The notes under the pieces are model-generated. The model was given only the letters and a program-made list of their open reading frames with translations. It did no database searches and was not told where the DNA came from. Below are positions 10,644-64,000 of a stretch of DNA of 64,000 nucleotides, piece after piece. The stretch is from the NCBI GenBank assembly GCA_014729395.1, contig WJJZ01000010.1:220544-284543 (forward strand). The letters are read 5' to 3'. The stretch comes from Candidatus Magasanikiibacteriota bacterium (GTDB taxonomy: Bacteria; Patescibacteriota; Patescibacteriia; Magasanikbacterales; UBA922). The stretch's first letter is position 1. Each line of letters begins with the position of its first letter. The position numbers and the translations under genes were made by a program.

Positions 10644-10785
10644 AAATAATAATTAACAATTAACAATGAACAACTAACAAATTTATTATCGTATACCGGA
10701 AAGCAATAAATTCTTTCGAAAAAATGAAGGTCTTCACGACAAGATTTGTTAATTGCTAATTGTTAGTTGTAAATTGAAAAATACT

Positions 10786-25159: not shown

Positions 25160-25281
25160 CCAGGAATCCCCGCCCGAGGCGGGTGCGCCTTGGGCGCAGA
25201 ACCTACACTTTGTGCTCTCGGCAGGAATCCCCGCCCGAGGCGGGTGCGCCTTGGGCGCAGAACCTACACTTTGTGCTCTCG
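25160..25281. repeat. Two perfect tandem 61-bp direct repeats abutting the 3' end of tRNA-Arg; each unit = copy of last ~24 nt of tRNA (+trailer) fused to GC-rich hairpins
   Basis: Units 25160-25220 and 25221-25281 identical: CAGGAATCCCCGCCCGAGGCGGGTGCGCCTTGGGCGCAGAACCTACACTTTGTGCTCTCGG; contains GAACCTACA...GCTCTCGGCAGGAATC matching the tRNA T-arm/acceptor; hairpins CCCGCC-CGA-GGCGGG and GCGCC-TTG-GGCGC. Confidence 0.8.
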
Positions 25282-25344
25282 GCAGGAATCGAACCTACAT
25301 TGCCAGTTCCGCAAACTGGTGTCCTATCCGTTGAACGACGAGAG
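25273..25344 (-). tRNA. tRNA-Arg (anticodon GCG)
   Basis: Manual fold: acceptor GCTCTCG/CGAGAGC, D arm GTTC-AACGGATA-GGAC, anticodon arm CCAGT-TTGCGGA-ACTGG, T arm GTAGG-TTCGATT-CCTGC; no encoded CCA. Coordinates +/-2. Confidence 0.65.
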
Positions 25345-25390
25345 CTTCAAAAATCGCCTAAATTATAGCCAAAAAAACAAAATCCGTCAA

Positions 25391-37888: not shown

Positions 37889-38671
37889 TTAAGTTTCTGT
37901 TGTTTCGTATTTTTCCAAAACCTCCCTTACCAATCTTTCATATGCTTTAGCTCCTTTTCCTTTGGGGTCATAATGAAAAATTGATTGACCAAAACTTGGT
38001 GCCTCGGCCAATCTGACTGTTCGAGGTATGACTGTTCTAAATATAGTATCTGGAAAATATCGATAAAGTTCATTCATAACATCTTCTGATAATCTTGTTC
38101 TCTTATCATACATTGTCAGTACTGCACCTAAAATTTTTAACTCCGGCTTAATATGTTGCTGGATCAACGAAATTGTGTTTAAAAGCTGTCCCAAACCTTC
38201 CAATGCATAGTATTCAGCCTGAACCGGTATCATCAACTCATCTGCCGCCACCAAGCTATTTATTGTCAAAAGACCAAGTGAAGGTGGGCAATCTATAATT
38301 ATATAGTCATATGCATGCTTAACTTCTTCCAGTAAATCATGCAATTGAAATTCCCTTCTGTCCATATTTACGAGTTCCACATTTGCACCGGCCAAGTTTG
38401 AGCTACTTGGAGCTATTCTCAAACCTTCATGATCCGTATTTTTGATGATATCATAAAAACGTTTTTGTTTGGCCATTGCCTCATACACACCACTTTCAAG
38501 ATTATCCTTGCTAAAACCAAAACCGCTTGAAGCATTCCCCTGCGGGTCCATGTCTATAAGTAAAACAAATTTTCCCAACTCAGCTAAATAGGCCGCTAAA
38601 TTCATAGCGGTTGTTGTCTTTCCAACACCACCTTTTTGATTTACAATTGTGATAACTTTGGACATAAACAA
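37889..38671 (-). CDS. parA: Chromosome partitioning ATPase ParA/Soj
   Basis: Deviant Walker A KGGVGKTT, 260 aa. Confidence 0.9.
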   Translation of the reverse strand: MFMSKVITIVNQKGGVGKTTTAMNLAAYLAELGKFVLLIDMDPQGNASSGFGFSKDNLESGVYEAMAKQKRFYDIIKNTDHEGLRIAPSSSNLAGANVELVNMDRREFQLHDLLEEVKHAYDYIIIDCPPSLGLLTINSLVAADELMIPVQAEYYALEGLGQLLNTISLIQQHIKPELKILGAVLTMYDKRTRLSEDVMNELYRYFPDTIFRTVIPRTVRLAEAPSFGQSIFHYDPKGKGAKAYERLVREVLEKYETTET

Positions 38672-38689
38672 AAGCTTGAAATACCTGAA

Positions 38690-38790
38690 AAGCTTAAAAG
38701 GCCTGAAAGGCTAGTATCTATTGTTTAGAAGTCTTTCAGGCTTTTCTGGCATTTTAAGCCTTTCTAGCCTTTTATAATTATACTACAAAT
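38690..38790. promoter_or_regulatory. Repeat-rich parAB upstream region (GGCCTGAAAGG / CCTTTCAGGC / GCCTTTCTAGCC palindromic repeats), candidate operator
   Basis: Three interlocking inverted repeats within 90 bp directly upstream of parA start. Confidence 0.35.
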
Positions 38791-49430: not shown

Positions 49431-49519
49431 ATAATGTTGTGATAGTTGTAAGTTGTAGAGTTGTAAGTTACTTACCACATCAACTTACAACTTATTAACT
49501 TACTACTTTCTACTATTAA

Positions 49520-50560
49520 CTACCTAAGATACTTGGCTACATTCTTATTATGTTCCTCCAAGGTCTTGGAATAAATAACTTCACCGGTATCAAGGGTGGT
49601 TAAAAAATACCAAAAATCATTTTCCCTGGGGTATATAGCTGCCATAATCGATTCCAAACTCGGAGTTCCTATCGGACCCGGGGGTAATCCCGGATATTTA
49701 TATGTATTCCAATATGAATCAATATCCCGATCAGATTGCATTGTAAAAACAGAACCATCCTTTCCTATAATATAGTGAACTGTTGAATCTGCCTGCAAAG
49801 CCCAATCCATATCTAATCGTCTCCAAAAAATATCAGCAATTATTCTCTTGTCTTCCTCAGTCCTGGCTTCATGCTCTAAAATACTGGCCATGGTTAATAT
49901 CTCATGAATATTTCTGTCCTTTTCTTCAATATCACTATACATTTGCTCTGTTATTTCCCGGTCTCTTTGACTAATCAATTTTTCAACCACTTCTGACAAT
50001 TCCGCATCAGCATATATTCTATATGTATTCGGAGATAGGTACCCATCATAAGCAATATAATCAGGTTTTGATTGCATAATTTTATAACCCATAAAATCTT
50101 TAGTGGGTAAATCATCATGATCACCCAGCCTATAATCTGTTGCCGAGACACCAAGATAGTCTAATACTTCTTCGTATGAGGCTATATCTTCCTTGACAAA
50201 ATAATCAGCAATATCACGTATTGTCCAGCCGGGTATTATGGTTATAGTCTTCTCTATTTTTGATTTTGGATCATTTAAAGATTCCGCCACATTCACCATT
50301 GTAACAGGTGATTCTACTTCAAACTGACCTTGCTTCACTTTTCTATCAATCTTCCGCCATATCAAATACTTTTCAAAAATCCAAGCATTACTGATAATTC
50401 CCTCCTCTTCCAATCTGGTAGATAATTCGGATACTCTTTCATTCGGCTTGACTACAAAATTTACAGACTGTTCAGAGGTATTTTGCAGAAATAGCATCCA
50501 GTATAATAAAAAAAAGGCTGATAGAACCAATAAAATTAAAAATATTAATAATCTTTTCAT
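49520..50560 (-). CDS. mltG: Endolytic murein transglycosylase MltG (YceG-like)
   Basis: N-terminal TM, YceG fold motifs (PGLPPGPIGTPS), 346 aa. Confidence 0.8.
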   Translation of the reverse strand: MKRLLIFLILLVLSAFFLLYWMLFLQNTSEQSVNFVVKPNERVSELSTRLEEEGIISNAWIFEKYLIWRKIDRKVKQGQFEVESPVTMVNVAESLNDPKSKIEKTITIIPGWTIRDIADYFVKEDIASYEEVLDYLGVSATDYRLGDHDDLPTKDFMGYKIMQSKPDYIAYDGYLSPNTYRIYADAELSEVVEKLISQRDREITEQMYSDIEEKDRNIHEILTMASILEHEARTEEDKRIIADIFWRRLDMDWALQADSTVHYIIGKDGSVFTMQSDRDIDSYWNTYKYPGLPPGPIGTPSLESIMAAIYPRENDFWYFLTTLDTGEVIYSKTLEEHNKNVAKYLR

Positions 50561-52191: not shown

Positions 52192-52345
52192 AGATTACAA
52201 TAACTGGAAAATAATTTGACCATAATTATACAATAATTACTGCTTAATACCGCCCTAATTATTGTAAAATTTTTATATAATTATTGTTTTATTATAATTC
52301 TATGATAGCTAAAATATGCCAAATTTGCAATATTATGCTGCGGTC

Positions 52346-53174: not shown

Positions 53175-53936
53175 ATGCCAATAGAAAATTATAGTGAAAA
53201 AAATTTTCCCAATCTGGAAGAAAAAATTGGGATAAAATTTAAAAATCCGGATATTTTGGTTCAGGCTTTGGTCCACCGATCTTTTTTAAATGAAAATAGA
53301 AATTTCCCGCTACCCCATAATGAAAGGCTTGAATTTTTAGGTGATGCGGTATTGGAATTGGTAGTAACAGAATTTCTGATTGACAATTACCTGAATCCCG
53401 AAGGTGAACTGACAAATTGGAGAGCGGCTCTTGTCAATGCCAAAATGTGCGCAAGAGTTGCAAATGAAATCGGTTTAAATGAATATTTATTTTTGAGTCA
53501 TGGTGAACAAAAAGATGATAGTAAAAAAGCCAGAGACTACATATTATCAAATGCAATCGAAGCCCTAATCGGGGCTATTTATATTGATCAAGGCTGGGAT
53601 ATATCAAAACAGTTTATCACCAGATGGATAATAACAAAATTACCCGAAGTCTTGGAAAAAGGATTATGGATGGATCCTAAATCCAGATTCCAAGAAGCGG
53701 CTCAAGAAAAAACCGGTGTTACTCCAACATATAAAGTAATAAAAGAAGATGGACCCGATCATGATAAAAATTTCCTGGTAGCTGTTTATTTAGATAAGCA
53801 AAAAGTTGCCCAAGGGGAAGGCGGAAGTAAACAGGAAGCGCAAGTTGCAGCAGCTGAAGCAGCTCTTGAAGAAAAAAAATGGAAAGGCCCCAAAATAGAA
53901 ATACTGGAAAGAAATCCCGGAGATCCTATAGGATAA
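53175..53936 (+). CDS. rnc: Ribonuclease III
   Basis: RNase III signature ERLEFLGDAVLELVV, C-terminal dsRBD. Confidence 0.85.
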   Translation: MPIENYSEKNFPNLEEKIGIKFKNPDILVQALVHRSFLNENRNFPLPHNERLEFLGDAVLELVVTEFLIDNYLNPEGELTNWRAALVNAKMCARVANEIGLNEYLFLSHGEQKDDSKKARDYILSNAIEALIGAIYIDQGWDISKQFITRWIITKLPEVLEKGLWMDPKSRFQEAAQEKTGVTPTYKVIKEDGPDHDKNFLVAVYLDKQKVAQGEGGSKQEAQVAAAEAALEEKKWKGPKIEILERNPGDPIG

Positions 53937-58626: not shown

Positions 58627-59796
58627 ATGGATATAGCCATGATTGGACAAAAAAGCGTCGTATTTTCTGAAAAGAGTGGAGGGGTGGAAAAGCATGTAGA
58701 AGAATTATCAACCAGATTGGTCAAACTGGGTAATAATGTTACGGTCTACTCTCGTCCCAGGCATACATTGCGAGGTAAAAAAACCAAAAAATACAAAGGT
58801 GTAAAGGTGGTATATCTACCTTCTATCCCAACAAAAAATTTGGATACAATAACGCATGTTTTTTTAGCCACTATTCATGTCCTTTTTAAAAAAGCGGACA
58901 TCATTCACTACCACGGTGTCGGCCCTTCTACTTTGGCGTGGATTCCTAGGATTTTTAAAAGAAAAACAAAGGTTGTGGTAACTTTTCACAGTATAGACAG
59001 ATTTCATAAAAAATGGGGTTGGTTTGCTCGGATTTATCTGGGTTGGGGTGAATGGACCGCCTGTAATTTTCCTCATGAAACCATTGTTGTCTCCAAAGCA
59101 ATCCAAGAATACTGTCGTGAAAGATTCAACAAAGAAACCATCTACCTTCCAAATGGAGTAAACATAGAAAAAGAGGAGAAAACTGATGATGATAAAATCA
59201 AAAAATATGGTTTAAAAAGAAATGAATATATTTTAACAGTTGCACGACTAATCAAACACAAAGGTATACATCACCTGATAAACGCCTATAAAAATTTGGA
59301 AGCCAAGTACTCTGAGAACGAAAAAAAATGGCCCGGCGGCAAAAAAATAAAATTAGCTATAGTGGGCGCACCAAGTTACACCGATGATTATTTGAATTAT
59401 TTACACAAACTGGCCGATAGTAGTCCTGACATAGTATTTGTAGGATTTCAAAAAGGAAAAACCTTAGCTCAACTATTTACTAATGCGTATCTATACGTAC
59501 ACCCATCAGAAGCAGAGGGTCTGGCAATTACAATTCTTGAGGCTATGAGTTATGGTAAATGTGTTTTGGTGAGTAATATTCCGGAAAATTTAGAGGCAAT
59601 AAACAGCTCCGGTTATAGCTTTGAATCCAAAAATATTAAAGACCTGGAGAAAATTCTAATTCAACTTTTACACTCTAAAAATAAAGTAATGGAATGCGCT
59701 CGAGATAGCATAAATCTAGTAAAAAAGAATTATGACTGGAAAGACATTACAAAAAAGACAGTGAATATTTATGAAAATCTAGGCTCTCGCAAATGA
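58627..59796 (+). CDS. Glycosyltransferase family 4 (GT-B, group 1)
   Basis: C-terminal EGLAITILEAMSYGKCVLVSNIP (E-x7-E region) typical of GT4; 389 aa. Confidence 0.8.
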   Translation: MDIAMIGQKSVVFSEKSGGVEKHVEELSTRLVKLGNNVTVYSRPRHTLRGKKTKKYKGVKVVYLPSIPTKNLDTITHVFLATIHVLFKKADIIHYHGVGPSTLAWIPRIFKRKTKVVVTFHSIDRFHKKWGWFARIYLGWGEWTACNFPHETIVVSKAIQEYCRERFNKETIYLPNGVNIEKEEKTDDDKIKKYGLKRNEYILTVARLIKHKGIHHLINAYKNLEAKYSENEKKWPGGKKIKLAIVGAPSYTDDYLNYLHKLADSSPDIVFVGFQKGKTLAQLFTNAYLYVHPSEAEGLAITILEAMSYGKCVLVSNIPENLEAINSSGYSFESKNIKDLEKILIQLLHSKNKVMECARDSINLVKKNYDWKDITKKTVNIYENLGSRK

Positions 59797-60489
59797 AAAA
59801 CCAACAATTTTCTGACAATTTTGTTTTTTTAAAACAAAGGCCGCTTCTTGCATTGTCACCCCGGTCGTATATACATCGTCAACCAACAAAATTTTTTTAT
59901 TTGTAAGATCAACGTTCTTTTTTATTGAGAAAGCCTTATCTAAATTTTCAATTCTTTCTTTTCTACCCAAACGAGCTTGTTGTTTGGTTTTTTTACGCCT
60001 GATTAGTATTTCATTAACCGGTACACCTATGAAAAAAGATACAATATTACTTAAAACTTCAGCCTGATTAAAACCTCTCTCCGCTCTGCGTTTATGATGA
60101 AGAGGTATGGGCACAATATAATCAAAATCTTTAAATAAATATGTATAGTTATCATAGAAATTTTTAAATACTATTCTTATCAAATCTTGTATGTCAATTG
60201 CATAATTATATTTTAAAATTTTTATAATTTTTCCCGATAAAGCGTTTTCTTCATAACGACAAAGTGAAATTTGTTGAATCAAATTGGATTTGTTTATACA
60301 ATTAACGCAAGTAAATCCATCTGTACTCATACATCGACAAACAGGGCAAATAAAAACCGGCTCAAAGTTTATTTTTTCAAAGCAAACCTTGCATAACCAT
60401 GAGCTTTCTTTACCGCATTCGATACAAAAAATCGGAAATATCAAATCCTTAATTTCTTTTATTAAACTTGCTGAAAATTGTTTGAACAT
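59779..60489 (-). CDS. comFC: ComF-family protein (ComFC): N-terminal zinc finger + phosphoribosyltransferase domain
   Basis: CxxC...CxxC N-terminus, PRTase motif ILLVDDVYTTGVT; 236 aa. Confidence 0.75.
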   Translation of the reverse strand: MFKQFSASLIKEIKDLIFPIFCIECGKESSWLCKVCFEKINFEPVFICPVCRCMSTDGFTCVNCINKSNLIQQISLCRYEENALSGKIIKILKYNYAIDIQDLIRIVFKNFYDNYTYLFKDFDYIVPIPLHHKRRAERGFNQAEVLSNIVSFFIGVPVNEILIRRKKTKQQARLGRKERIENLDKAFSIKKNVDLTNKKILLVDDVYTTGVTMQEAAFVLKKQNCQKIVGFSFARA

Positions 60490-60554: not shown

Positions 60555-61124
60555 CTAATCCCAATACAAACCATCGATCTTCCAATCATCGTTAATTTTA
60601 ACCAAGTCTACAGAACCGGACAAATTTTCTTTTTCTTCTCCCAATGTGGTTTCTGTAATTCTTTGCGCTTCCACTAACACCGTTGCACTGTCTTCATCAA
60701 TTTGTTCAACAGAAGAAGCAATTACTTTTGTAGTTACTCCTACGTAATCTTTTGATTGATCCAGGTCTTGCATTGAAAGCCAATTTGCCATTTGATCGGT
60801 TACCAGCGGAAGAACATCTTCAATATGCTGATTGTCATTTTGATTGGAATAAGTTCCAAATCTTTCTACAAATATTTCAGATACCTGCTTTACATAAGTC
60901 TCTTCTGAAAAAGGTTCTGCTTCAAGCGTAGACTGAACATCAGGTGTTAGCCTTTCCATCACTTCTTGTTCAATATCTTGCTCAGTGGTCGTGGGTGTAA
61001 TCCCCTCCTCCTGTTGATCCTCTCCGGTGGGTTTAAGTACAAAAAAATAAAATAATAAAAATGCCAAGACTAATCCTATAATTATGCCTATGGCTATAAA
61101 TATTCTTTTTCTAATATCCATCAT
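60555..61124 (-). CDS. Hypothetical membrane-anchored acidic protein with C-terminal compact (NTF2-like?) domain
   Basis: N-terminal TM IFIAIGIIIGLVLAFLLFYFFVL, acidic linker, C-terminal ...VDLVKINDDWKIDGLYWD; placed directly downstream of VirB4-like gene (VirB8-like position). Confidence 0.45.
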   Translation of the reverse strand: MMDIRKRIFIAIGIIIGLVLAFLLFYFFVLKPTGEDQQEEGITPTTTEQDIEQEVMERLTPDVQSTLEAEPFSEETYVKQVSEIFVERFGTYSNQNDNQHIEDVLPLVTDQMANWLSMQDLDQSKDYVGVTTKVIASSVEQIDEDSATVLVEAQRITETTLGEEKENLSGSVDLVKINDDWKIDGLYWD

Positions 61125-61136
61125 ATAAATTTTTTA

Positions 61137-63023
61137 TTATTGCTCAGTCTGATTTTTATTATTCATCACTTCTTCTTCAAATTCCTTTTTTGCTTTTTCT
61201 ATTTCAAGTAACTGTCCCGGGTCCGAAGTAATTAACTGATCCTCTGTGTATGATGCTACAACCTTTATAGCGGCATGTTTTAGTCCGGCAAAAAATATCC
61301 CCTCTCCAACAGCGCTTTCAAGAAGTAAATATTTTTCACCTTCGGTTAGCATAAAAGTTTTTTGAATCATATCAATTGAAGCCGGAGATTGGCGCAACAG
61401 TAATTGCAAAGCCGAGTTGGTTACGATCGCTTGGCCGTATGGAGAACGCAAAAAATCATTTACATCTTGAGTAATGGTAGTCACACCAAGGTAATATTTT
61501 CTGGCTCGCTTTACCAGAGCATAGATAAACTTCGCACTGTCCTCATGTGTCATTAACCACCAGGCCTCGTCAATAACAAGCATTCTTTTCTTTCTCTCAC
61601 TTCTTACCACGTTCCAAATATAATTGATCAAGTTATATATTGCCATTGGCCTTAACTCATCCTCCAAATCCCTGACACTAAAAACTACGAGCTGATTATT
61701 CATATTGACATTTGTTGGCGAGTTGAATAATCCGGAAAATGTCCCCTCGGTAAATTTTCTTAATTTCAATACCAAATTATCGGCCCCCTCCATACCTTCT
61801 AAAATATCAAGCAAGTCCTGCATAATGGGCGGCTCAACAGTAGATAAATCAGAAGAAGACGTAATATCTTTTTTAGCATATGTCTCCAGCAAAGCTCGAT
61901 CCATAATTGAATCTTCTTGTGGTGTCAACGAACCGAACATTACTCTAATCAAACCTTTTAGACTAATAACGGCACTCCTAATAACATCTTCTGTGGAAAT
62001 CTGCTGACCAACAGGCCTGGGTAAATCAAAGGGGTTTACCTTGCTCTCCGAAGAGAGTGATATATTTACATAGGTTCCACCAACCGCTTCATTCAAGTGA
62101 ACATATTCCATCTCCGGATCAATAATTATTATATCCACCCCAAACATGAGTGAGCGCAACACTTCCAATTTTACAGCATAAGATTTACCGGCTCCGGAAG
62201 TGGCGAAAACAACCATATTGGCATTTTGCAATGAAAACCTGTCAAAAATAATCAGACTATTGTTATGACGATTAACACCATACAAAATACCGTCATCGCT
62301 TGTCAGTTCTGAAGAAATAAAAGGAAAAGACGAAGCGATCGGAGATGAATTCATATTGAAAGTAACCATCAATTCATCGATTCCAAGCGGCAGAGTCGAA
62401 GTAAAACCCTGTTCAGACTGATAAAGAACATGCTTGGTGTAAATTAATTTTGAAGAAAAAATATTTTCAATATCCTCTGTAATCCTATCAAGCTCTTCTT
62501 TTGAATTTGAATACAAAGTGACATAAAAAGCAAATTGAAAAAAATGCTCAATACCCTGAGTTAAATCATCCCTAAGCTGTTCTATGTCGCGAAGTGCTGT
62601 CTCACGCAAAGGATCACGCGGCGCGCCCTTTTCCGCATCAGCACTCAACTGTGCCTGCAAAGCACCGACTTTTTTCTTTAATTGCTTCAAAATTACGCCT
62701 GAAGGTACCGGATAGAAAAACATGGATATATCCATGGTAAAATTCAAATTTAAAATCGGTGAACTCCAGCCTACGGCAATATATCTGGGAAAAGTAATTA
62801 CAAAAATCGTCCTCAAAAAAGTATCACCAAGCTGGATGAAAGTTGATTCAACTCTTAAAGCGGATGGGGCGATCAAATCTCTAATAGCAACAGTCCCCTC
62901 TCTAAAAGTTCTTTCTTCTTCAAGAGATACCAGCTGTTCTTTTACTTGTTTTTTCTTTTCCTCTTCTTTCTTTTTTGATTCTTTTTTCTGCTTTGTTTCA
63001 GTTGTGATTGGTTTAAACGGCAT
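61137..63023 (-). CDS. VirB4/TrbE-like conjugation/type IV secretion ATPase, lacking the usual N-terminal ~150-200 residues
   Basis: VirB4 N-domain pattern LGDTFLRTIFVITFPRYIAVGWSSPILNL...DISMFFYPV, Walker A ATSGAGKSYAVK, Walker B MLVIDEAWWL; 628 aa vs ~800 typical. Confidence 0.7.
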   Translation of the reverse strand: MPFKPITTETKQKKESKKKEEEKKKQVKEQLVSLEEERTFREGTVAIRDLIAPSALRVESTFIQLGDTFLRTIFVITFPRYIAVGWSSPILNLNFTMDISMFFYPVPSGVILKQLKKKVGALQAQLSADAEKGAPRDPLRETALRDIEQLRDDLTQGIEHFFQFAFYVTLYSNSKEELDRITEDIENIFSSKLIYTKHVLYQSEQGFTSTLPLGIDELMVTFNMNSSPIASSFPFISSELTSDDGILYGVNRHNNSLIIFDRFSLQNANMVVFATSGAGKSYAVKLEVLRSLMFGVDIIIIDPEMEYVHLNEAVGGTYVNISLSSESKVNPFDLPRPVGQQISTEDVIRSAVISLKGLIRVMFGSLTPQEDSIMDRALLETYAKKDITSSSDLSTVEPPIMQDLLDILEGMEGADNLVLKLRKFTEGTFSGLFNSPTNVNMNNQLVVFSVRDLEDELRPMAIYNLINYIWNVVRSERKKRMLVIDEAWWLMTHEDSAKFIYALVKRARKYYLGVTTITQDVNDFLRSPYGQAIVTNSALQLLLRQSPASIDMIQKTFMLTEGEKYLLLESAVGEGIFFAGLKHAAIKVVASYTEDQLITSDPGQLLEIEKAKKEFEEEVMNNKNQTEQ

Positions 63024-63030
63024 AACCTTT

Positions 63031-63494
63031 AATCATAAATCTAAAATCCTAAATCATAAATTTTTATTTTTTCTCTTTGTAGAGTGTGGAAACACTTTTG
63101 CCTAATATTTTAGAAATTTCAACCGCCTCATCAAGTAAAAAATTAAATTCTTTTCCCTCATCGATTCCCGTATCTTTCATCAATGAAAGCCAGTACTTAC
63201 TTTCATTGCATGATTTTAATGAATAAGCCAAAAAGTTTCGAAAGTCTTTTTTTGTGGGCGAACCAATTGCCTCAATATAATTTGCTCCTATACTTGTTCC
63301 CGAACGTAATAATTGGTTTACTATAGTTTTGACAGCTTCATCTTTCTCCTGTTTTGATAATATTCTCAAGTATTTTACCAACCTAACCGACCAATTATAG
63401 ATCCTTAGTTTTAAATCGTTTTTAAATTTATCTTTCTCATCCTTTTTATATGACACAAAATAATTTATGATTTATGATTTATGATTTATGATTT
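63031..63494. mobile_element. ~465-bp insertion-like unit: four-helix-bundle gene flanked by inverted arrays of AATCATAAAT / (ATTTATG)n repeats (63031-63061 and 63463-63494)
   Basis: Left AATCATAAATCTAAAATCCTAAATCATAAAT; right ATTTATGATTTATGATTTATGATTTATGATTTT, mutually reverse-complementary decamers. Confidence 0.5.
63064..63456 (-). CDS. Four-helix-bundle protein of the rRNA intervening-sequence (TIGR02436-like) family
   Basis: Motif block FKNDLKLRIYNWSVRLVKYL...QLLRSGTSIGANYIEAIG characteristic of IVS-encoded 4HB proteins; GTG start. Confidence 0.7.
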   Translation of the reverse strand: MSYKKDEKDKFKNDLKLRIYNWSVRLVKYLRILSKQEKDEAVKTIVNQLLRSGTSIGANYIEAIGSPTKKDFRNFLAYSLKSCNESKYWLSLMKDTGIDEGKEFNFLLDEAVEISKILGKSVSTLYKEKK

Positions 63495-63495
63495 T

Positions 63496-64000
63496 CTAAA
63501 TGTTTTCCACTTGCAATTCCTCTACCGGCTGCAAAGATTCTGCAAATGATATATCCGGATTATAAGTTGTATAGTAAAGCTCAATCAATGACTGGGTATC
63601 AAGCTGAGCCACACTCAACCCCATAGCTTCAAGACCACTTGTCACTTGCCTTAGTCGCAAATCCAAATCATATTTTCTTTTTTCAAATTGCTTTTCTTTC
63701 AGTCTCAGACTCAAAACCGGTTTTAAAACTTCTTTAAATCTGGACCAAAAACTTTTCTTTTTGTTACTTAATGGATCATAGGGAACAACTACATAAAATC
63801 GTTTTGTCATAATTTGCCCAATCTCCACCATTTCCTCTACAAAGGCTCGATAATCAGCAATTTGCACTCTCAATAATTCATTTTTTTGTTCTTTCTCGGC
63901 TGTCATTAACTTATCAATATAAGGCTTGATCCGAAGACGCCTGGACTGAACCAAAATTTGCAATGGAAAATCCAATGAATTCAAGAAACTCACATATGAA
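63496..64000 (-). CDS. Partial ORF (5' end beyond window); candidate detached N-terminal portion of the VirB4-like ATPase
   Basis: ≥165 aa, same strand, immediately upstream of 4HB insertion and VirB4-like ORF that lacks its N-terminal region; no TM. Confidence 0.4.
   Translation of the reverse strand, partial: SYVSFLNSLDFPLQILVQSRRLRIKPYIDKLMTAEKEQKNELLRVQIADYRAFVEEMVEIGQIMTKRFYVVVPYDPLSNKKKSFWSRFKEVLKPVLSLRLKEKQFEKRKYDLDLRLRQVTSGLEAMGLSVAQLDTQSLIELYYTTYNPDISFAESLQPVEELQVENI

Follow-up and report, generated by a model that had tools for sequence, protein, structure and literature searches.

An intervening-sequence-type four-helix-bundle cassette between the two VirB4 genes of a Candidatus Magasanikbacteria type IV secretion operon

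We have analyzed a 64,000-nt stretch of a Candidatus Magasanikiibacteriota genome (contig WJJZ01000010.1, positions 220,544 to 284,543), which we call the window and which has a GC content of 36%. Between the two parts of the VirB4 ATPase of a type IV secretion system (T4SS) the window carries a 463-bp cassette that resembles the intervening sequences (IVSs) of ribosomal RNA. In this cassette a gene for a four-helix-bundle (4HB) protein is enclosed by inverted arrays of heptamer repeats. We think it likely that this promoterless-looking cassette has been inserted into an already existing junction between the N-terminal and the ATPase gene of VirB4, and that lodging at operon junctions is a habit of the whole cassette family. 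A first-pass annotation of the same DNA had proposed as its main claim that an IVS-like element split an intact virB4 gene, and had named as an alternative that VirB4 is naturally two-part and the cassette merely intergenic. Relatives with an empty site are split in the same way and have no 4HB gene there, and hence the alternative is the correct reading.

The VirB4 gene pair and the age of its division

On the minus strand the window encodes, in this order, an N-part open reading frame (ORF) that runs off the window end, a 472-nt spacer, a 628-aa ATPase ORF, a 189-aa membrane protein and ComFC. The ATPase ORF (61137..63023, minus strand) has the VirB4/TrbE hallmarks that had been pointed out before: its translation contains RTIFVITFPRYIAVGW, the Walker A motif ATSGAGKS and the Walker B motif IDEAW, it matches P-loop_TraG with 2.2e-26, and with 347.9 bits it lies above the cutoff (325) of NF045971, the CD1110-type VirB4 model. 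It covers positions 182-728 of 752 in NF045971 and positions 186-725 of 792 in VirB4_CagE, and its product is 100% identical to a protein at NCBI from a metagenome-assembled genome. Upstream on the same strand lies the 3' part of a stand-alone VirB4 N-terminal-domain gene, TraC-like or TrsD-like (63499..64000, minus strand), that is followed by its TAG stop codon at 63496-63498. At least 165 aa had been noted for this ORF; 167 codons are visible (63499-63999), and the protein has ~228 aa in relatives. The full-length 228-aa version from the relative L001 occupies positions 3-179 of 792 in VirB4_CagE and positions 2-105 of 752 in the CD1110 model. Its precomputed Pfam match is TraC-like, and the window N-part is 86% identical to it. 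The partial window ORF itself gave no significant Pfam match (best TraC_F_IV at 0.013), and a PDB sequence search with the VirB4 N-part found nothing. In a fused 898-aa VirB4 homologue (P0374) the N-part corresponds to residues 61-218 and the ATPase part to residues 323-890, the latter aligning to residues 40-606 of the window ATPase with 49% identity. Aligned to full-length VirB4 the two window ORFs are colinear, and the upstream one does resemble the N-terminal region. Complementary on the profiles and colinear with the fused protein, the two predicted products are the two halves of one VirB4. The N-domain and the ATPase are not joined in a single polypeptide here, the N-domain being encoded by the separate upstream ORF.

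The comparison with relatives allows the division of VirB4 to be dated relative to the cassette. Our set comprises 13 loci with both VirB4 genes on the contig, which together with the window makes 14 lineages. VirB4 is encoded by two genes in all 13 relatives, the spacer is 1-38 nt long in 11 of them, and a 4HB gene is found there in none. The junction of L001, whose ATPase is 92% identical, has 12 nt and reads TAA-AAAAAGTTATTT-ATG, with the stop and start at the same positions as in the window. Read directly from the sequence, the residual host spacer of the window is AAAGGTT (63024..63030, minus strand; compare the L001 spacer AAAAAGTTATTT) and contains the Shine-Dalgarno-like AAGG of the ATPase gene. 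In the lineages nearer to the window (78-92% ATPase identity) the empty sites are compact junctions of 1-12 nt. The best 120 ATPase homologues (81-100% identity) are all 600-638 aa long. Stand-alone N-parts make up a family with 971 cluster representatives (E<=1e-3), and the best 150 of these are all stand-alone proteins of 92-443 aa except for the one fused 898-aa protein. Since all 13 relatives are split without a 4HB gene, since the homologues have this length and since the N-parts form a large family, the split is much older than the cassette. Judged from these comparisons, the natural state of VirB4 in this Candidatus Magasanikbacteria lineage is a pair of abutting genes, for a ~228-aa N-protein and a ~625-aa ATPase, and relative to the close relatives the cassette is an insertion into a pre-existing stop-start junction of few nucleotides. 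The cassette did not split VirB4, and therefore the apparent gene disruption is none.

Two of the relatives have ORF-less tandem-array hairpins exactly at the junction between the N-part and the ATPase gene (L096, 818-936, 119 nt; L097, 2133-2208, 76 nt). Their fold z-scores are -3.9 and -4.4, and their repeat units are unrelated to those of the window. The ATPase gene of L096 (937-2897) is in two overlapping ORFs (937-1281 and 1200-2897), owing to a frameshift or an assembly error.

Two other histories of the site have to be weighed. If an IVS-like element had gone into an intact virB4 and thereby produced the two pieces, both the colinearity of the ORFs with full-length VirB4 and the position of the cassette exactly between them would be accounted for. 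We nevertheless regard this history as refuted, since all 13 relatives show the same division, whether a 1-38 nt spacer or an ORF-less hairpin lies between the genes, and lack a 4HB gene there, since the empty L001 junction carries stop and start codons of its own at matching positions, and since the stand-alone N-parts are a large and diverse family. Very improbable as well is that the VirB4 junction had the 4HB cassette ancestrally and that the relatives lost it cleanly. The ORF-less hairpins of L096 and L097 could then be remnants; however, they have no repeat units in common with the window arms, the lineages nearest to the window have the compact empty sites, and the closest relatives of the cassette sit at other loci.

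The cassette and its family

The empty sites in relatives, together with homology that ends at the outer ends of the arms, delimit the whole cassette to 463 bp (63031..63493, minus strand); the unit had been recognized before, with its size given as 465 bp. As transcribed, the 5' arm (63459..63493, minus strand), found by inverted-repeat and tandem-repeat scans, consists of ~4.6 tandem heptamers that read AAUCAUA in RNA. The 3' arm (63031..63065, minus strand), found by the inverted-repeat scan, is a degenerate heptamer array complementary to it. On the forward strand the perfect array is (ATTTATG)x4.6 at 63463-63494, and the other arm has the degenerate units ATCATAA, ATCTAAA and ATCCTAA. The arms, whose reverse complementarity had been noted, are 35 nt long each, 89% complementary and 393 nt apart, and when inverted repeats within 700 nt are listed longest first they come top in the whole 64-kb window. 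RNA folding of the cassette region bears out the long stem that had been suspected, as the terminal stem is dominant in both the minimum-energy and the centroid structures. For the whole molecule the z-score reaches only -1.7, as the inner part codes for protein. Three heptamers with TAA (or with ATG in the other arm) would present this triplet in all three frames, since 7 is not a multiple of 3; this applies to the window arms and not to every lineage.

The gene between the arms (63064..63456, minus strand) is intact and encodes 130 aa from a GTG start. It belongs to PF05635 (1e-21, 77.5 bits with a cutoff of 33.8, 2-105 of 106 profile positions) and TIGR02436 (4.7e-24, 84.7 bits with a cutoff of 24), and the 4HB assignment of the first-pass annotation thus holds. 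The protein retains all 23 invariant residues of the family. Within the RxxxSxxxNxxE motif R50, S54, N58 and E61 are invariant in the family alignment, while the 4HB clade of the window has Q47 in place of the G of the published GxxR motif. The family profile matches PDB 2RLD with 4e-21, and the depositions of the homologue structures 2RLD and 2GSC comprise five chains each. There are no further 4HB gene copies within the 64-kb window. An rRNA match was not found in the window either; the cassette lies between two protein-coding genes.

The closest 4HB proteins have 61-73% identity and are mostly from Magasanikbacteria. Three of their cassettes were located at other gene junctions, namely between rpmE and prfA (L085, 72% amino acid identity), between GtrA and infA (L108, 66%) and between DUF6938 and EamA (L086, 61%). 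When the four cassettes are aligned as DNA, homology spans the ORF and both arms and ends at the outer arm ends; outside of the arms identity drops to ~35%, which is the random level. Between the window and the L085 ORF the identities at the three codon positions are 0.82/0.88/0.42 with synonymous sites saturated, and therefore the 4HB protein is under purifying selection. The arms of these two cassettes are 88-97% identical (29/33 in the 5' arm, 29/30 in the 3' arm). The arms are part of the element, and the constraint on them exceeds what pairing alone calls for. The cassette is a discrete unit that is mobile over evolutionary time. At the L108 locus (~2440-2500) the stop codon of the upstream GtrA-like gene is a TAA within the cassette's 5' arm, and therefore the arm supplies the stop codon of the host gene in some loci.

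A wider search with a clade profile retrieved 80 4HB loci from GTDB genomes of the Candidate Phyla Radiation (CPR), Omnitrophota, Zixibacteria, Nitrospirae, Chloroflexota and other phyla. The flanking inverted-repeat score has a median of 16 at the 4HB loci against 7.5 for other genes of the same loci, and 58 of 76 4HB loci reach a score of at least 13 compared to 11 of 152 control genes (Mann-Whitney p = 1e-23). The repeat units vary by lineage (GTCAAAA, ATGAAAA, GTTAAAA, ATCATAA and others), with a period of 7 in 28 of the 30 arms that have a clear periodicity. That pairing is retained while the arm sequence changes amounts in effect to covariation. Where two neighbors were called, the 4HB gene is co-oriented with both in 66 of 71 cases and opposite to both in none; the same-strand baseline for adjacent genes is 0.84. 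The stems have a median length of 32 bp. Relative to the upstream stop codon the outer 5' end has a median position of -2 nt, and the outer 3' end lies at a median of +6 nt before the downstream start. All 80 related loci are outside of rRNA genes. These comparisons provide evidence that the cassette family lodges at stop-start junctions of co-directional genes in many phyla and that this is its usual habit.

Downstream of the ATPase gene a predicted membrane protein of 189 aa is kept (60555..61124, minus strand), and a gene for 192-200 aa is found at the same position in relatives. It had been described as a VirB8-position membrane protein; the position stands, while a homology is not apparent, as searches of Pfam and NCBIfam profiles gave no significant family match. 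The ComFC-like phosphoribosyltransferase next door (59779..60489, minus strand), also reported before, has a Pribosyltran match and a weak double zinc ribbon match and is at the same position in relatives. In the relatives L001-L004 the upstream neighborhood includes PrgI-like and TrbL-like genes; the equivalent region of our genome is beyond the window end. The T4SS ATPase is an ordinary two-gene VirB4, and the operon is probably functional.

Several further hairpins were seen in the window. At 49441-49510 (minus strand) an ORF-less tandem-heptamer hairpin of AGTTGTA / TACAACT fills the 89 nt that separate the stop codon of a YceG/MltG-like gene (49520-50560) from the queA start codon ATG (49430), with the layout of stop, stem and start that is also found in the 4HB cassettes. 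Three more are intergenic: one with TAACAAT x5 arms and a 61-nt loop between phosphoglucomutase and ClpB-like genes (10644-10775), one with arrays of the 11-mer ACAATAATTAG upstream of a PAP2 gene (52197-52287) and one with 9/18-mer arrays of AAAAGCTTAAAAGACCTG upstream of a ParA-like gene (38670-38772). The fold z-scores of these three range from -3.5 to -4.2. At 244-325 there is a GC-rich 28-bp hairpin with 96% complementarity (TGTCATTCCCGCGAAGGCGGGAATCTAG) within AT-rich DNA. A perfect 61-nt x2.1 direct repeat at 25161-25290 overlaps a tRNA-Arg(GCG) gene (25273-25345, minus strand); an integrated element may have left it behind as a partial duplication of the tRNA. Outside of the window, a site between DNA ligase and ftsW in near-identical strains (L100-L107, ~250-1130) mostly holds a gene for a 246-aa Y1_Tnp protein (IS200-like) that is flanked by the REP-like hairpins GTCCAATCTGGCAGATTGGAC; in L103 it holds instead a 237-aa PF05635-domain protein with the 11-mer tandem array CCCTTAATCAT in front.

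A possible life on the transcript and other readings

We propose that the cassette would be transcribed within the T4SS operon mRNA, where base-pairing of its arms would give a ~32-35 bp stem whose loop contains the 4HB ORF. The base of this stem would be ~3 nt away from the upstream TAG and ~7 nt from the downstream Shine-Dalgarno/ATG, so that TAG and AAGG-ATG come to lie within ~10 nt. With stop and start held this close, expression of the operon should be little disturbed, and we infer that translational coupling may be preserved across the cassette. In rRNA IVSs the stem is cut by RNase III, and the host enzyme probably does the same here. Such a cleavage would free the 4HB mRNA and part the two VirB4 messages. 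A candidate for the enzyme acting in trans is encoded in the window itself by an RNase III gene (rnc; 53175..53936, plus strand; Ribonucleas_3_3 6e-39, dsrm 2e-16, NERLEFLGD motif). The absolute sense bias, taken together with the purifying selection, speaks for a 4HB protein that is produced from transcripts of the host and matters to the element or the host. It is an attractive idea that a 4HB pentamer might bind to the ~4-5 heptamers of an arm.

Some observations sit less well with this proposal. An obvious Shine-Dalgarno sequence is missing in front of the 4HB gene, whose start codon is placed at the top of the stem. A promoter and terminator scan gave 20 promoter-like sites where 13.4±3.9 are expected, which says little in DNA this rich in AT, and a promoter inside the cassette is possible. 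Mismatches in the stems are G.U in 96 and A.C in 71 cases, which is marginal for selection at the RNA level (p = 0.06), and the arm sequence is kept beyond the needs of pairing, a hint that a protein recognizes it sequence-specifically, possibly in the DNA. Furthermore, the ORF of the Coxiella burnetii IVS is apparently not expressed (PMC4990558).

It is worth asking whether the cassette could be mainly a transposable element at the DNA level, with its arrays serving as terminal inverted repeats for a transposase acting in trans or for the 4HB protein, its ORF-less relatives being similar to miniature inverted-repeat transposable elements and the RNA stem being incidental. The sharp boundaries and the arm sequence conserved beyond the need of pairing would agree with this, as would the ORF-less tandem-array hairpins at the same and at other junctions and the one intergenic site that holds a Y1 transposase or a 4HB gene in near-identical strains. 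We still consider such an element unlikely. There is no signal of a target-site duplication in 61 loci (longest common flank 3.48 nt vs 3.50 nt permuted, with arm ends known within a few nt), no transposase lies in or beside the cassette, and the repeat units of the ORF-less hairpins are unrelated. In addition, the sense orientation is absolute, 66 to 0, and the arms fit the stop and start codons precisely, which points to a constraint at the level of the transcript. Alternatively, the stem might be a regulatory device that benefits the host, a site of mRNA processing or stability that uncouples the VirB4 N-part and ATPase or sets their ratio, with the 4HB gene as a passenger in the loop. Tandem-array hairpins with unrelated repeat units do occur at this junction in 3 of the 14 lineages (the window, L096 and L097), and periodic long hairpins are rare elsewhere, ~6 in 138 kb. 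The numbers are small, however, and the baseline is crude: the gene-free scan behind it missed the hairpin at 49441-49510, so that an enrichment at the VirB4 junction is no more than suggested. As 11 of the 14 lineages do without any hairpin and the cassette family is also found between unrelated housekeeping genes, which leaves no link to the T4SS, we regard a host device as quite unlikely. An integron cassette with attC was ruled out, since the inverted repeats are on both sides of the ORF and not just behind it.

Insertion of an IVS-type cassette into an existing operon junction thus remains our preferred reading. A much broader proposition can be put forward tentatively, as possible rather than probable. 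ORF-bearing IVSs would then be no peculiarity of rRNA but one face of widespread, promoterless, self-insulating cassettes and ORF-less miniature hairpins. These would colonize sites in transcripts where a long stem holds the flanks together, such as the tips of rRNA helices and operon stop-start junctions, and would be removed or tolerated by way of RNase III. Their heptamer arrays (~4-5 copies) might be read sequence-specifically by a pentameric 4HB protein for maintenance or spread.

Relation to known systems

Two-gene forms of VirB4 are familiar from Gram-positive conjugation systems, where TrsD/TraD, a small homologue of the VirB4 N-terminal part, is encoded directly upstream of the ATPase gene for TrsE/TraE. 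The VirB4 pair of the window has the same arrangement, with a small VirB4-N homologue just upstream of the ATPase. The N-ORF matches the TrsD/TraD model NF041427 with 4.9e-8 and 33 bits, which is far under the family cutoff of 200, and we therefore regard the N-ORF type of the window as a homologue of TrsD/TraD and not as a member of that family.

Proteins with a 4HB fold have been described in other genetic neighborhoods. PF05635 is the commonest Pfam match in the neighborhoods of diversity-generating retroelements (DGRs), and the 4HB protein of the window belongs to the same four-helix-bundle superfamily as the DGR accessory protein Avd (PMC10053308). Unlike Avd, it has neither a reverse transcriptase nor a template/variable repeat nearby, which rules out a function as DGR Avd; both of its neighbors are VirB4 genes, and the flanks out to these genes are filled by the cassette's own arms. 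A certain likeness also exists to the intergenic hairpins of repetitive extragenic palindromic (REP) sequences and bacterial interspersed mosaic elements (BIMEs) with their Y1 transposases, as repeated hairpins lie between operon genes and one related site alternates between Y1_Tnp and 4HB. In contrast to REP/BIME, the cassette arms are tandem heptamer arrays that vary by lineage, and no Y1 transposase accompanies the window cassette. There is also a report by Zhang et al. (2013) of 18 23S_rRNA_IVP genes tightly inside cas operons, for example between cmr3 and cmr2, which were read as a functional link to CRISPR-Cas (PMC3936711). Like these copies, the 4HB gene of the window is wedged between co-directional operon genes; the passages of that account that we searched contain no flanking stems, orientation rule or insertion origin. 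A literature search, with incomplete coverage, found no account of stems, orientation or a junction rule for 4HB copies outside of rRNA. Lodging between ordinary operon genes is thus apparently a widespread and undescribed habit of 4HB cassettes. The rules at issue are the sense orientation, the exact fit to the stop-start junction and the conserved arms. If the cassettes mostly live in mRNA operons under these strict rules, functional links that were drawn between 4HB genes and operons, for example the cas loci (PMC3936711), need to be re-examined, as these copies are maybe mere insertions.

A parallel in architecture are the ORF-containing IVSs of 23S rRNA, which are known from Coxiella, Leptospira and others. 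In C. burnetii the IVS in helix 45 has 428-444 nt and an ORF of the PF05635 ('S23p') family whose start codon is immediately preceded by 3-4 tandem GACAGAT heptamers, and RNase III cuts the terminal stem of 28 bp at the first repeat (PMC4990558). ORFs of the PF05635 family were also found in insertions in 16S and 23S rRNA of CPR bacteria (10.1101/2024.02.27.582315). The window cassette likewise has a PF05635 ORF with tandem heptamers before it; it is of similar size (463 bp against 428-444 nt), and in both a terminal stem, of ~28-35 bp, surrounds the ORF, and hence the IVS-type likeness proposed in the first-pass annotation is well founded. Like the Coxiella IVS, it would depend on the transcript of its host. 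Unlike an rRNA IVS, it lies in the spacer of a protein operon and not in an rRNA helix. Excision by RNase III has been demonstrated for the Coxiella IVS, whereas it can only be presumed for the window cassette, and the 4HB ORF of the window is under clear purifying selection while the ORF of the Coxiella IVS is decaying. Where ORF-bearing IVSs come from and what they are for has been unclear since ~1990 (PMC4990558). If such cassettes mostly live in mRNA operons, the biology of IVSs can be studied outside of the ribosome, and the 4HB/Avd-like protein gains a testable ligand in its own heptamer stem.

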